Source: a virus
Strand: one strand, 5' to 3'
Length of the DNA stretch: 64,000 bases
IMG/VR virus record: IMGVR_UViG_3300035698_006641
Location: 32,846-96,845 of that record
A program made the translations under genes and the position numbers. This document shows positions 6,707 to 58,864 of this stretch, piece by piece. Positions within the stretch are counted from its first letter, which is position 1, and every line of letters starts with the position of its first letter. Below the pieces are notes generated by a model that saw nothing but the letters and a program-made list of their open reading frames with translations, was not told the DNA's origin and made no database searches.

Positions 6707-7434
6707 CGTGCCTTTATTCCTGGGTAAAGATCTACTACTGGATCGCTTTGCCAGAACTCTTCAGTTTCCTTGCAAAACACGGTTAAGGCCCCATCGTAAC
6801 TAGCCCCGGTGTCTAGGAGCCACACATTGCTATGTTTCACGGGCTCGGTACCACCACCGATACGTAACTTAGTAGTTGGTGTGTGCCCACAATAAACATT
6901 CCTGTAAAACTCAACAACAGGAGACTCAATAGGGCCAGCCATAACTGCTTTAGCTATCATATTCCGATCCCATATAATATATTCTACATCGTTGTCTTCT
7001 GCTTTACTGTCTACCCGTATACCACCGTGAACTAAAAGATCATCACCTAGTTCGAGGTATGCAGCAGCCTTATCAAGATAATCACATACCAAGGCATGAG
7101 ACGCAGCTGAATCAATAGACTCCCTGGTGACTCGTCCTCCTTGATCATCCCAGTCAATAAAATCCCAAAAGTTTAAACCCCACCCACCTCGACCCAAGTT
7201 CTGTTTCAGCCACGTATGGCACCACGAATCATGGTTTCCTAAAAGGTGTTTGTGATTTGGAAGTTTCTGTAAGTAGTCAACGCACTCAGTTACATCCGGC
7301 CACCCATCGCATACATCCCCTAAGGAGATCAAAAGATCTTCTTCAGGGTTGAATTTTGCGCGTTCCAGAACTTGAGTCAATGCACGAAATGACCCATGTA
7401 TATCTGTTACTAACAGTGTTCTCATTTTTACCAT
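6703..7434 (-). CDS. Ser/Thr protein phosphatase-like metallophosphoesterase (lambda NinI/ApaH-like)
   Basis: TDIHG, LGDVCDG, LGNHD, VHGG, GHTP, LDTGA motifs. Confidence 0.9.
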   Translation of the reverse strand: MVKMRTLLVTDIHGSFRALTQVLERAKFNPEEDLLISLGDVCDGWPDVTECVDYLQKLPNHKHLLGNHDSWCHTWLKQNLGRGGWGLNFWDFIDWDDQGGRVTRESIDSAASHALVCDYLDKAAAYLELGDDLLVHGGIRVDSKAEDNDVEYIIWDRNMIAKAVMAGPIESPVVEFYRNVYCGHTPTTKLRIGGGTEPVKHSNVWLLDTGASYDGALTVFCKETEEFWQSDPVVDLYPGIKAR

Positions 7435-32834: not shown

Positions 32835-32932
32835 AATTTTATTTCCTAATTGTTTGAATTTTTAACAAAAGACTACACCGAATGTGAGTCTCATTATATT
32901 GTTGTTATTTTGTTTGGAACGCATTCCAAAGT

Positions 32933-54942: not shown

Positions 54943-55282
54943 AAATAATCCTTTGTTTTATTAATTTCCGACAAGATTCTCTGTGTACTTAATGTTTCAT
55001 TACAAGCTTTTTCAGCTTGGAGTTTGATCTACTGAGCCTAAAGGCATACATAGCTTTTATTGCTAACAGCTCTACCGAAAATCCTATATCTCTCAATACA
55101 GCCCTCGGTGGAACATAGTCCTCAATAAAATATCGATCAGTTGATGATACGGCGAATGCCATACACCCTCCCTCTTTTGTGCGGAGGTTATTCTTAGTTA
55201 CGAATAATTTGTATGGTTTTTTGTGTAATTTTGTTATATGGTTCTTGTGTGTTTGACCCAAAAGAGTCTGAGAAAGAATACT

Positions 55283-58200
55283 ATGTCGGAAATTGAAAAT
55301 GTTTTAGCCAAGTACGTGGCCATGATTAAAAACGGGGAACTTACTAATTTGTCACCCCTTCTACCTTTACTGTTTACATTAAGAGGCAAGCCGTTCTCTT
55401 TGAAGGATCACTTTTTGTGGGAGCCTTTGTTTAACGTGCAGGTCCCCAAGAAGCGTACGATTGTTTGCGGAAGACAGGTAGCAAAATGTATCCTAAGTAC
55501 CTCTAAGGTAACTACTTACACCGGAGAACATATAGCTGCTGCTGACGTAGCTGTTGGCGACAAGTTGTTGTGCCTGAACGAGAACGCCCCAGGGTGGGAG
55601 TCCACCTCCGGATTGGTTACTAATGTCTTCAATAACCTAAGCAAACCAATGAGGGTTATCACAACCCGTATGGGCTCTGAGGTGACGGTGTCTAATGATC
55701 ATCGCCTTAGGACTGCTGGTGGGTATGTGCGATCTGAAGAGCTATCTGTAGGGGACAGGATCTGCAGGATACGTAGGGGCGGTGAGTTTGAAAATAAGAA
55801 AGTGGACCGTAAAAGGTTAGTTAAGTGGTTATCAGAGGACGGGCTTATTGGGTGTAGATCTCATGAAAAGTTTATTCCAGAGTGGGTTTTTTCATTGTCC
55901 AAAGCGGATACAATTACTTTCATATCTAGGCTGTATGCCACGGATGGTTGCATTAAATCCATTAATGGGAGCCCGTCAATAACCTATTGTAGTAACTCAA
56001 GGGCTTTGATAGATGGGTTGCAGTCACTTCTCACTAAACTTGGCCTACCATCCTCTATTCGTTTCTGGGACCCAGAGGTTGGTAGAAGAGCCTACAGCCT
56101 CAGGATCGAGACCAGATCCTCACAGGACTGGTTCTTAAATAACATTAAGGTGCCAGGCAAGCCAATCCCAACCGGACTCATTAAGAAGAAGTCTAGCAAC
56201 AACAGGGACACTTGGCCTAAAGATCACGTAACATCTATCATAGAGAGACACACCAGAGACACTATTTACCAGAGGGGTGAAAGTCTACGTAAACACGGAT
56301 TGAGAAAAACCCTAAAATACCAACCAAGTATAGAAAAAATACACCAATACATCGAGTACTTCGATCTCATAGGCAATCATGATGCTGTGAGTGACCTATC
56401 TATATTAGTTGATACTGATGTGTATTGGGACACTATTGAGTCAATTAAGGAGGTTGGTGAGTGTGACGCAATAGACTTTGAGATCGAAACACACCACAAC
56501 TTCGTACTAGCTGGGGGGATTGTGACCCACAACTCGGAGACTTCTGCTGTGCAAATGCTTTCTTGGCAACTACTTAGAGATTATATGAACATTCTCTATG
56601 TAGCCCCAAGGGACAACCAAACAAAGATCTTTTCAAATGACAAGGTGGGTCCGTACATAAAGAGCTCACCTGTTTTCAAGGATGTAGATAAGAGTCTCCC
56701 GAATGGGGTGTATACTCGGTCAATTAAAGATGGAAGTAACATGTACTTCTCCTATGCCTTCCTTGATGCCGAGAGGATAAGATCAATTACGGCAGGGGCT
56801 GTATTCTATGACGAAAGTCTTGTCGGAGATACTCTAATTCCGACATACGACTTGTCCGGAGTAAGAACAGTTAAAAACATTTCTGACATTAAAGCCGGAG
56901 ATATAGTTGACAGCTTCACTGATAAGGGTTGTAAACTATCAAGTGTAGTAGTCTGCGACGCTTCCTTTCATGGAAATCAGCCGTGCTACCGTGTTACCAC
57001 AAGTAGTGATAAATCGGTTGTCGGGACCTCTACACATCCGTTGTGGACTAATGAGGGGCCTCTTCGGATCGGAGAGATGATAAGAAATGTATACAGACCT
57101 GCAATCACAGATAAAGAGAACTTTCTCATAGATCCAGATCCAGATGTTGTTAGGGACTCTTCTCGGAGATGGGAACCTATCAACACCGAAGCACAAGAAG
57201 ACGGCGAGTTACCGGTCCAGACACGGGGAACATCAACATACATACAATCAAGACAAATACATGATATTGTCAGAGTACGTAATAGAGCCTCCTTCACTAA
57301 AGAAGAACGGGAACTTCAAGGCCTCATCTTGGACAACCCACCGACACAAGGACTTTCACTGTGTGTCCTTGATGACATACAGCAAAACCACCGAAAAAGG
57401 GAACCCGAAGTCTCTGAGATAGGAATCAAAGCAGTACATGGGGATGAACCCGGAGAAGCTGGCAGAGACGGAGGCCCTGAGAGCCTATCAGTCCCTACGA
57501 GATGTAAGGAGACAGATGACCCAATTGTAAAAATAGAATATGTTGGTATGATCGACGTATGGGACATAGAGGTAGAAGGGACACACAACTACATACTAGA
57601 TAACGGCTTTAAAAGTCTTAACTGCCAAGATATCAACCCTGCATTCCGTGTACCTATCCAGCAGGTCATGGCCGCATCCCTCGACTTCGGTGTGACTCAG
57701 AGTACAGGAACACCCAAGACCTTCGATAATAACTTAGAGACCCAGTGGGCTCAAAGTAGTCAAGCTGAATGGTGTATACCGTGCAACAAATGCAACAAAT
57801 TGAATGTTGCTGGTGTGGAGTTTGACTTGCTCAAAATGATTCAGCCACACGGCCTAGCTTGCGCCAAGTGTGGTGCCCTCATCAATACCAGAGAAGGTTG
57901 GTGGGAACATAGGTATCCCAACAGACGAGAACGCCATGAGGGATACCACGGTCCACAGCCAGTCTTCCCGATGCATTGTGAGAAACAGCCAGATGAGATA
58001 AATACCAAGGTAGGCCGGAAATGGACGGATCTCCTTTATAACCAAGAAGATATGCCAACCTACGGCTTCTACAACGAAATCCTAGGTACTTCTTACGACA
58101 ATGCTGATGAGCTTATTAGTAAAACATCCTTAGTGGAGAACTCTACACTAGATCATGATAATACCTTAGATGCGGCTATTAAACTTGCACACAACAGAGT

Positions 58201-58864
58201 TAAGTATACTTTCGTATCAATGGGGGTTGACTGGGGCGGAGGCGGAGAGAGCGGAGTAAGCCGTACAGCTATTACCGTATTAGGGTGGAAGGCAACAGGA
58301 AAACCAGATGTCATTTACATGCATCGCATAACCAACCCAATGGCCACTGACCAGGAATCTCTGTACATTAAGCAACTAGCCGCAAGATTCAATGTTGACC
58401 TACTAGCTGACGACTATTGCGGAGCTGGTGAGGCCAAAGAGATCATACTGTTGCAGACTGGATTCCCTTATAGCAAATTAATGCCCGTTGCCTACGTACC
58501 ATCTACTGTAGGTAAGATGATGGAGTACGTTCCAGCAGAAGATAAGGTTAGCCGTCCATACATCAAGGCTGCTAGAACCAAGAGCCTGTCAATAATGGCG
58601 GCACTAATCAACAACGGATATTATACCTTTCCAAAATTCGAGTCTTGGGACTCCCACGACTATCCGAATAATCTATTGTCATTGGTACAAGAGAAGCGCG
58701 ATAGGTCTGGTGGTTCTGCTCGTTACTTCATCACTCACAAAGCTGGTAGAGCTGATGATTTGGCTCATGCGCTCATGTACGCTTCTATTGGGTACTGGTT
58801 TGTCACCAAGAATACTCCGGACTTCACTAAGCTACTCGGAAGAGAGTTTTCTGAAGAAGTCTAG
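55283..58864 (+). CDS. terL: terminase large subunit (GpA-like) with two inteins; about 575 aa after splicing
   Basis: Walker A GRQVAK|SET, Walker B FYDE|CQD, TGTPK, CNKC/CAKC, NEILG, MGVDWG nuclease, DDLAHA. Confidence 0.88.
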   Translation: MSEIENVLAKYVAMIKNGELTNLSPLLPLLFTLRGKPFSLKDHFLWEPLFNVQVPKKRTIVCGRQVAKCILSTSKVTTYTGEHIAAADVAVGDKLLCLNENAPGWESTSGLVTNVFNNLSKPMRVITTRMGSEVTVSNDHRLRTAGGYVRSEELSVGDRICRIRRGGEFENKKVDRKRLVKWLSEDGLIGCRSHEKFIPEWVFSLSKADTITFISRLYATDGCIKSINGSPSITYCSNSRALIDGLQSLLTKLGLPSSIRFWDPEVGRRAYSLRIETRSSQDWFLNNIKVPGKPIPTGLIKKKSSNNRDTWPKDHVTSIIERHTRDTIYQRGESLRKHGLRKTLKYQPSIEKIHQYIEYFDLIGNHDAVSDLSILVDTDVYWDTIESIKEVGECDAIDFEIETHHNFVLAGGIVTHNSETSAVQMLSWQLLRDYMNILYVAPRDNQTKIFSNDKVGPYIKSSPVFKDVDKSLPNGVYTRSIKDGSNMYFSYAFLDAERIRSITAGAVFYDESLVGDTLIPTYDLSGVRTVKNISDIKAGDIVDSFTDKGCKLSSVVVCDASFHGNQPCYRVTTSSDKSVVGTSTHPLWTNEGPLRIGEMIRNVYRPAITDKENFLIDPDPDVVRDSSRRWEPINTEAQEDGELPVQTRGTSTYIQSRQIHDIVRVRNRASFTKEERELQGLILDNPPTQGLSLCVLDDIQQNHRKREPEVSEIGIKAVHGDEPGEAGRDGGPESLSVPTRCKETDDPIVKIEYVGMIDVWDIEVEGTHNYILDNGFKSLNCQDINPAFRVPIQQVMAASLDFGVTQSTGTPKTFDNNLETQWAQSSQAEWCIPCNKCNKLNVAGVEFDLLKMIQPHGLACAKCGALINTREGWWEHRYPNRRERHEGYHGPQPVFPMHCEKQPDEINTKVGRKWTDLLYNQEDMPTYGFYNEILGTSYDNADELISKTSLVENSTLDHDNTLDAAIKLAHNRVKYTFVSMGVDWGGGGESGVSRTAITVLGWKATGKPDVIYMHRITNPMATDQESLYIKQLAARFNVDLLADDYCGAGEAKEIILLQTGFPYSKLMPVAYVPSTVGKMMEYVPAEDKVSRPYIKAARTKSLSIMAALINNGYYTFPKFESWDSHDYPNNLLSLVQEKRDRSGGSARYFITHKAGRADDLAHALMYASIGYWFVTKNTPDFTKLLGREFSEEV
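55487..56533 (+). mobile_element. intein 1 in terminase Walker A (349 aa), partial LAGLIDADG
   Basis: C1 CILSTS; SNDHR block B; only one LAGLIDADG-like motif (ISRLYATDG); HNFV...VTHN|S. Confidence 0.9.
56816..57622 (+). mobile_element. intein 2 in terminase Walker B (269 aa); Ser1, penultimate Leu
   Basis: SLVGDT; GTSTHP block B; VWDIEVEGTHNYI...KSLN|C. Confidence 0.88.
57087..57530 (+). pseudogene. LAGLIDADG endonuclease remnant in an overlapping (+1) frame inside intein 2
   Basis: ATG after GGAG; QMLLGTLLGDG...H...Q..Y...K motif; in-frame TAG at 57129 and 57420. Confidence 0.75.

Follow-up and report, generated by a model that had tools for sequence, protein, structure and literature searches.

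The 64,000-nucleotide stretch analyzed here, referred to as the window, comprises positions 32,846 to 96,845 of the IMG/VR virus record IMGVR_UViG_3300035698_006641, a 96.8-kb viral contig from a metagenome assembly. The window encodes a large terminase subunit (TerL) that contains two inteins. The second of these, intein 2, carries in its +1 reading frame the remnant of a LAGLIDADG homing endonuclease gene, overprinted on the terminase gene and read on the same strand. The features of the gene, of intein 2 and of the nested remnant are:

55238–58864, plus strand: TerL open reading frame (ORF) of 1208 amino acids (aa) with two inteins inside, identified from the ORF listing, from Pfam matches to GpA_ATPase, Intein_splicing and LAGLIDADG_3, and by alignment with TerL homologues.
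56816–57622, plus strand: intein 2 in frame 0, Ser527 to Asn795, inserted directly 3' of the Walker B Asp-Glu; its +1 residue, Cys796, is at 57623–57625.
57087–57530, plus strand: I-SceI-like LAGLIDADG homing endonuclease remnant (pseudogene) in the +1 frame, fully nested in intein 2, assigned by Pfam LAGLIDADG_2, tblastn to intact relatives, alignment and tree.
57071–57089, plus strand: start region of the former endonuclease, read from the sequence, with GGAG at 57071–57074, the +1-frame stops TGA and TAA at 57078–57083, and ATG at 57087.
57129–57131, plus strand: the earlier of the two TAG codons that inactivate the +1 frame, lying 3' of the ancestral ATG and 5' of LAGLIDADG motif 1 (translation and alignment).
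57144–57188, plus strand: LAGLIDADG motif 1 (MLLGTLLGDGNL) in the +1 frame, aligned to the G..GDG columns that are invariant in intact relatives and free-standing homologues.
57410–57424, plus strand: junction of an in-frame deletion of ~247 codons relative to the homologue P0003 (BLASTP against P0003), holding the second TAG at 57420–57422.
57425–57530, plus strand: kept 3' end of the endonuclease ORF, with TAA at 57528–57530 at the start of intein block F (translation and alignment).

The ATG at 57087 lies 1849 nucleotides (+1) from the TerL ATG at 55238. A sequence-only reading of this DNA had placed a LAGLIDADG endonuclease at 57087–57530 with its own ATG and an upstream GGAG; the translation reads as quoted there, the +1 frame is closed by two stops just upstream of the ATG, and the match to Pfam family PF03161 (LAGLIDADG_2) is above threshold. 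The E values are 1.6e-8 for the 92-aa ORF at 57144–57422 and 7.4e-9 for a 147-aa read-through in which X was placed at each TAG, with scores of 35–36 bits against a 25-bit cut-off; only profile positions 2–87 of 168 are covered. This half-profile match and the positions of the stops agree with the further claim that motif 1 is present and motif 2 missing, and that two TAG codons interrupt the +1 frame while the intein frame is open. With motif 1 kept, motif 2 absent and two stops, the +1 reading is not an uninterrupted two-motif ORF, and the window's endonuclease gene is, as judged from its sequence, a pseudogene and not a functional member of the family. Near its 3' end the reading ..RAYQSLRDVRRQ.. 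resembles the C-terminus of the endonucleases of two relatives, L008 and L010 (..RAYQNARNARFR..). Across the 147 codons no stop interrupts the TerL frame; when the +1 reading is shuffled synonymously, a mean of 4.7 stops appear there, and none in a fraction of 0.0005 of the shuffles. In the third frame 13 stops were counted where 11.6 are expected.

Relatives were found in IMG/VR by scans with the 92-aa ORF, the terminase alignment and the endonuclease alignment. The scan with the 92-aa ORF led to L002, a 210-kb viral contig with a homologous two-intein terminase of 1447 aa, open throughout, and an intact 311-aa LAGLIDADG ORF in the +1 frame inside the second intein. Among the 80 best endonuclease loci in IMG/VR, 23, amounting to ~14 distinct sequences, sit within a host ORF of 1030–1469 aa, and in every one of these the endonuclease lies at +1 of the host frame. 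An open terminase together with an intact +1 ORF was found in L006, L007, L008, L010, L012, L009/L002, L088, L091, L093, L096, L104, L115, L118 and L147; the intact +1 ORFs are 299–512 codons long and homologous to free-standing LAGLIDADG endonucleases. Seven of nine newly checked host ORFs match the window terminase by BLASTP. The host ORF of L096 gives no such match, yet has the same layout of DE, intein and CQD, and that of L109 is truncated (481 aa). The search for intact relatives with both frames open, set beforehand as a test of the sequence-only reading, was thus positive in ~14 distinct IMG/VR contigs. Its opposite outcome, an endonuclease in frame in all homologues, did not materialize: among the terminase homologues found, none has an endonuclease in frame with the intein at the intein 2 site. 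In the protein database, P0003, P0004, P0005, P0007 and P0008 have long uninformative frame-0 interiors at this site, and P0006 (811 aa) has a short mini-intein. Frame-0 intein 2 as the query gave no tblastn match in cultured phages and no related locus in IMG/VR, and the only match of a metagenome scan with P0003 was L085, a 1.7-kb fragment over the terminase N-terminus.

The products of the nested ORFs are recognizable in sequence and in predicted fold. Pfam LAGLIDADG_2 matches the relatives' +1 ORFs with E values of 7e-13 to 3e-24, and the frame-0 readings of the same DNA have no Pfam match. A profile built from the nested ORFs and compared with the PDB retrieves I-WcaI (1e-27) and I-SceI (2e-26). 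The AlphaFold2 (AF2) model of the L009 ORF has a predicted local distance difference test score (pLDDT) of 80.5, and Foldseek places it with I-WcaI and I-SceI (E 1e-11 to 1e-10, target-normalised template modelling score (TM-score) 0.71). Both LAGLIDADG motifs, with the catalytic GDG and DDG, are conserved in L006, L008, L009, L010 and L012, and the consensus of the second motif in the relatives is AWWFMDDGS. In loci with mapped intein coordinates, the nested ORF ends within ~30–45 codons of the intein C-terminus, near block F.

Stop codons and substitutions were analyzed frame by frame. The terminase frame has 0 stops in all five nested ORFs tested, where synonymous shuffles expect 9–25 and none of 500 shuffles reaches 0; the third frame of the nested ORFs has 10–17 stops, as expected, and the free-standing L003 and L004 have 27–30 stops in the equivalent frame. 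Ratios of nonsynonymous to synonymous substitution rates (dN/dS) were obtained from 450 gap-free overlapped codons of L007, L008 and L010, which are one closely related trio:

Overlap, +1 (endonuclease) frame, L007, L008 and L010: dN/dS 0.08–0.20.
Overlap, terminase frame, same loci: dN/dS 1.25–2.2.
Overlap, third frame, same loci: dN/dS 1.1–1.3.
Exteins, same loci: dN/dS 0.00–0.07.

This comparison, proposed along with the sequence-only reading, shows purifying selection in the +1 frame and not in the intein frame. Between divergent locus pairs the +1 translations keep 83–203 bits; frame 0 keeps at most 42 bits in five of the six pairs and 120 bits in the sixth, L006–L009. Family and fold, selection, stop avoidance and gene-like boundaries, as judged from sequences and models, mark the nested ORF of the intact relatives as a genuine gene. 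With both frames open and selection on the +1 frame in these relatives, the proposal that the lineage had an independently translated, overprinted endonuclease holds up well; initiation would have been internal.

Two indels could also bring an in-frame domain out of frame, either in the data or in evolution. The first possibility, that an assembly or sequencing artefact displaced a normal in-frame domain, draws on the contig being a metagenome assembly from IMG/VR, unchecked against reads. We consider it negligible: (i) ~14 independent contigs, drawn from different samples, have an endonuclease ORF at this +1 offset that starts and stops within the intein, (ii) the terminase frame is stop-free far beyond chance, (iii) P0002, from a separate 3.5-kb contig, is identical to the window terminase over its 796 aa, all of intein 2 included, and (iv) an artefact would not yield frame-specific purifying selection. 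The second possibility is a compensated frameshift, in which the domain was displaced by two indels and the +1 reading was never a functional, independently expressed gene. The sequence-only reading had named two compensating frameshifts as its alternative; for this lineage they cannot account for the recurrence of the offset, start and stop across the ~14 contigs. The window copy is indeed non-functional, and same-clade endonucleases that are in frame elsewhere, interspersed with nested ones, indicate that frame changes occurred in the clade. A displaced domain is nevertheless hard to reconcile with intact +1 ORFs of 299–512 codons that persist across terminases ~30–36% identical to one another, with their dN/dS of 0.08–0.20, with the conserved catalytic GDG and DDG, and with their own ATG and Shine-Dalgarno-like motifs; an untranslated frame would, moreover, gather stops as the third frame does. 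We therefore hold a compensated frameshift to be highly unlikely.

How the overlapping gene would be started was examined in a table of 13 nested loci (L087–L147, truncated L109 included) plus the window. With the window counted, 11 of the 14 have an ATG that follows a GGAG, GAGG or AGGAGG motif by no more than 16 nucleotides; among the other nested loci, 10 of 13 have an ATG preceded by a motif of this type. The +1 frame often opens only 1–8 codons upstream of the ATG. An alternative to internal initiation in the relatives is programmed +1 ribosomal frameshifting from the terminase frame, which would give a fusion of N-extein, N-intein and endonuclease. Both frames share one mRNA, a longer open +1 stretch precedes the first good ATG in L091 (26 codons), L093 (90) and L101 (38), and three loci have no motif of the searched Shine-Dalgarno set. 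In most loci and in the window, however, the +1 stop 1–8 codons before the ATG leaves almost no room for a shift site, and a Shine-Dalgarno-like motif precedes the ATG in 11 of the 14. The proteins P0003–P0008 also fit a conserved ATG: frame-0 codon 1 at the start position would be xAT (Asn/Asp/Tyr) and the next is G-initial, although xAC synonyms are possible. Frameshifting is thus an improbable route, with a small chance of applying.

Beyond the LAGLIDADG core, the nested endonucleases have a Cys-rich element (CxxC...CC..C) and a Lys/Arg-rich C-terminal tail, 100–250 residues in extent, and the free-standing L003 and L004 are without both. Pfam finds no domain in this region of the nested endonucleases, and in L007, L008 and L010 the basic tail falls inside the region under purifying selection. 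The Cys-rich element and basic tail were located in three relatives:

L006, 7400–7936, +1 frame.
L008, 7450–8134, +1 frame.
L012, 7400–8116, +1 frame.

We analyzed whether frame 0 of intein 2 has the properties of a splicing element. Its residue 1, Ser527, is the N-terminal nucleophile directly after the Walker B sequence ..FYDE (Ser, Cys or Thr in relatives); block B reads ..TSTH.., and blocks F/G read ..VWDIEVEGTHNYILDNG..SLN, with Cys796 next. Leu, not His, occupies the penultimate position, and in relatives the last residue is N or Q, followed by C. In L006, L009 and L012 the last residue of intein 2 is Gln in place of Asn (..PQ/C, ..LQ/C). Alleles with an empty site occur in L014, L070 and L073, which read DE-[IV]QDMD with no insert. 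Of the features of a class 1 intein, the nucleophile, block B, blocks F/G, a predicted Hedgehog/intein (HINT) fold and intein-free alleles are present. Splicing of intein 2 would be expected, as the Walker B motif of a presumably essential terminase is otherwise interrupted. A split intein with the endonuclease gene between its halves (a 'fractured gene') was considered and rejected, there being no frame-0 stop or restart anywhere in the intein. The last residue of P0002 is precisely the +1 Cys that follows intein 2; this contig break at the intein boundary could reflect intein-containing and intein-free alleles coexisting in the sample.

According to the AF2 model, frame 0 of intein 2 is predicted to fold as a mini-intein of the HINT type. 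Residues 1–96 and 228–270 are confident (pLDDT ~85–92), and Foldseek relates the model to Ssp and Npu DnaB, DnaE and gp41-1 (E 6e-8 to 1e-5, target-normalised TM-score 0.75–0.84). The sequence-only reading had called the middle of intein 2 featureless in the terminase frame. This is true of residues 97–156 and 188–227, where pLDDT is below 50, but not of residues 157–187, which form a helix plus a strand:

57284–57376, plus strand: frame-0 helix-plus-strand element, intein 2 residues 157–187, overlapped by endonuclease codons (AF2, pLDDT ~80).

The frame-0 columns of R153, R155 and E164 are invariant among seven aligned inteins, and the segment is kept in the mini-intein P0006 and in both decayed copies, that of the window and that of L005. 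The segment is probably a genuine part of the HINT fold over which endonuclease codons run. A bolder proposal, which we advance tentatively and as somewhat doubtful, is that these ~30 codons code in both frames, for the HINT helix plus strand and for the first half-domain of the endonuclease. Such double coding would explain why independent decay in the window, L005 and P0006 ran around the segment and never through it; if so, the endonuclease gene would be physically interlocked with the splicing domain, limiting how inteins of this type can shrink.

The decay of the window's copy is evident from comparison with P0003, its closest homologue. BLASTP of intein 2 against P0003 (65% identity) is gapless over residues 1–198 and resumes at 204–270 against P0003 1021–1087. 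The deletion of ~247 codons took the second LAGLIDADG motif along with the Cys-rich element and the greater part of the basic tail, and kept frame 0. Together with the two TAG codons, it bears out the view that the gene is now decaying. In the tree, the remnant groups with the nested endonucleases of L090/L091. An independent second decayed copy, of the L008 type, lies at 6718–7189 of L005, with motif 1 deleted, one internal stop and a large internal deletion; there, too, the terminase frame stays open despite the decay of the endonuclease. Reassignment or suppression of TAG, as a rescue of the two TAG codons, was rejected: TAG is an ordinary stop in this genome, where 6 of 45 long ORFs terminate with it, and the search for a suppressor tRNA was negative, tRNA-Arg(CCT) being the only tRNA in the window.

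The remnant might instead have been co-opted, either as the 92-codon ORF at 57144–57422 or as the frame-0 linker, for example as a DNA-binding half-domain or a splicing regulator. The ORF does keep motif 1 and ~90 residues of the first LAGLIDADG half-domain, and the overlapped region, predicted to be partly structured in frame 0, is kept in every decayed copy. No Shine-Dalgarno-like motif, however, lies upstream of the ATG at 57144, and a start there would fall inside the motif helix. Enzymes of the I-SceI family are two-motif monomers, and motif 2 is deleted here. Retention of the region is explained more simply by the overlapping frame-0 intein element. Co-option appears very improbable.

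The other intein of the window terminase also carries a damaged endonuclease, in this case an in-frame one:

55487–56533, plus strand: intein 1, Cys84 to Asn432, with an in-frame LAGLIDADG_3 endonuclease domain that is without the first LAGLIDADG block (Pfam Intein_splicing and LAGLIDADG_3).

Relative to L009, ~58 residues are absent, the first LAGLIDADG motif among them; L009 and P0003 have the block. With this block missing from intein 1 and the intein 2 endonuclease dead, both inteins of the window terminase look immobile, their endonucleases apparently disabled. P0003 intein 1 (residues ~68–75) appears to begin with Thr (..QVAK/TVLSTSS..), where the window has Cys.

Based on the observed homology, nesting and stop avoidance, the frame-specific selection in relatives, the folds and the lesions, we propose that intein 2 very likely belongs to a lineage whose homing endonuclease is separately encoded and is not a domain of the intein polypeptide, and that the endonuclease has decayed here. 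In the corresponding mechanism, of which internal initiation, empty-site cleavage, splicing activity and the order of the lesions are the parts that we infer, ribosomes in the terminase frame of the intact relatives would read through the endonuclease gene and produce a mostly disordered linker. This linker would leave with the intein on splicing, restoring the Walker B region (DE/CQD). A second set of ribosomes would start at the internal ATG with its Shine-Dalgarno-like motif and make an endonuclease of 300–510 aa, comprising the two-motif LAGLIDADG core, the Cys-rich element and the basic tail. The enzyme would presumably cut terminase alleles without the intein (DE-[IV]QD), carried by co-infecting phages, and so drive homing. 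In the window, a TAG lies upstream of motif 1, a deletion of ~247 codons removed motif 2 and the tail, and the second TAG stands at the junction. That leaves a mini-intein that looks immobile and holds a relic of 148 codons, a late stage of the homing cycle. None of the lesions closed frame 0 or broke the splicing blocks, as expected if the terminase is essential, which it presumably is.

Several observations weigh against this interpretation or limit it. The nested loci L090, L104 and L115 have no motif of the searched GGAG/GAGG/AGGA set. In the window, the GGAG lies 12 nucleotides from the ATG at 57087 and overlaps conserved intein codons (G-E-M), and on both counts the ribosome-binding site there is weak evidence. 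P0003 was compared as a protein, from which its +1 frame is not reliably inferable, the middle position of each +1 codon being the wobble position in frame 0. The two TAG codons and the deletion junction are those of an assembled contig rather than of reads. For all members, translation of the nested ORF, endonuclease activity and splicing are predictions. Finally, one half of the endonuclease tree is mostly free-standing, apart from a single in-frame and a single nested member, and the other half is intein-associated; in the latter, nested and in-frame forms are interspersed, with L096 placed beside L121 (Shimodaira–Hasegawa-like approximate likelihood ratio test, 97). Because of this interspersion, the history, as read from the tree, is more complex than one invasion. 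The in-frame members of this clade belong to inteins of other host proteins (L121, L136, L145, L157 and L161). The deep origin could lie in a free-standing gene that invaded a mini-intein or in an in-frame domain that shifted out of frame long ago.

Separately encoded, overlapping intein endonuclease genes have been called rare in preprints of 2025–26. An out-of-frame endonuclease in the Synechocystis DnaX intein was proposed by Gorbalenya in 1998, as cited in Phillips et al. 2026 (doi 10.64898/2026.09.14.751524), and in that preprint Phillips, DeSimone and Gogarten (bioRxiv 2026) confirmed the DnaX case with the same kinds of evidence as used here. The cyanobacterial DnaX intein resembles intein 2 and its relatives in the same-strand ORF that overlaps between the splicing blocks, in an in-frame region that is a low-confidence, disordered linker, in an endonuclease resembling I-WcaI (PDB 6X1J, the top match here too), in Shine-Dalgarno-like motifs, in dN/dS values that exceed 1 for the host frame and stay low for the endonuclease, and in mini-intein alleles beside full ones. 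It differs in its host, a bacterial dnaX as opposed to the Walker B site of a phage terminase, and in its offset, which is +2 there and +1 here; the Cys-rich element and long basic tail are found here, and the window copy is a pseudogene.

Non-canonical inteins of actinobacteriophages, many of them in the large terminase, have the endonuclease in another frame or on the antisense strand (bioRxiv 2025, doi 10.1101/2025.01.02.630785), and the authors propose that a free-standing endonuclease gene invades an intein, with decay to mini-inteins. They share with the present case an in-frame stretch without recognizable structure; here the endonuclease is a same-strand, +1, I-SceI-type LAGLIDADG enzyme from uncultured phages of ~100–210 kb. 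The terminase of this uncultured clade is ~23% identical to any cultured-phage terminase found. The 'hidden' HNH endonuclease in the ShiLan phage methylase gene (Arsenault, Gosselin and Gogarten, Genes 2025, PMC11855218) is likewise an out-of-frame ORF under a stop-free host frame, with its mode of translation left as an open question there (PMC11855218). Unlike intein 2, the ShiLan element has no intein splicing domain and remains as a loop in the host protein, and its enzyme is HNH, not LAGLIDADG.

The relatives match I-SceI and I-WcaI, monomeric two-motif enzymes of PF03161, in sequence and fold, with motifs ..LLGDG.. and ..WFMDDG... Those enzymes are encoded by group I introns, whereas the present ones are nested in inteins and have C-terminal extensions, and the window keeps only the first half-domain. 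Endonucleases of the same clade, lying between the splicing blocks, also occur in the canonical inteins of L136, L157 and L163, which lie after a Walker B-like DE in another terminase family, and in the RNA-ligase intein of Pseudaeromonas phage KLEP7 (L086). In these canonical bifunctional inteins, by contrast, the endonuclease shares the reading frame of the intein and forms one polypeptide with it. The layout is thus rare but already described, and the published precedents weaken a claim to novelty. What sets the element apart is the basic-tailed +1 enzyme of I-SceI type, the position at the Walker B site in an uncultured clade, and the decayed state.

Inteins of this kind are easily mistaken for decaying inteins or mini-inteins, and for annotation the other frames of 'featureless' intein interiors should be checked before these are named linkers. 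The present case adds a same-strand, +1, I-SceI-type LAGLIDADG version from ~14 distinct uncultured phage contigs, with clear frame-specific selection. It also brings together stages of the homing cycle for one element, from empty sites through intact dual-coding copies and two that decayed independently to a mini-intein, and it shows a rule for decay: lesions may not close the terminase frame.

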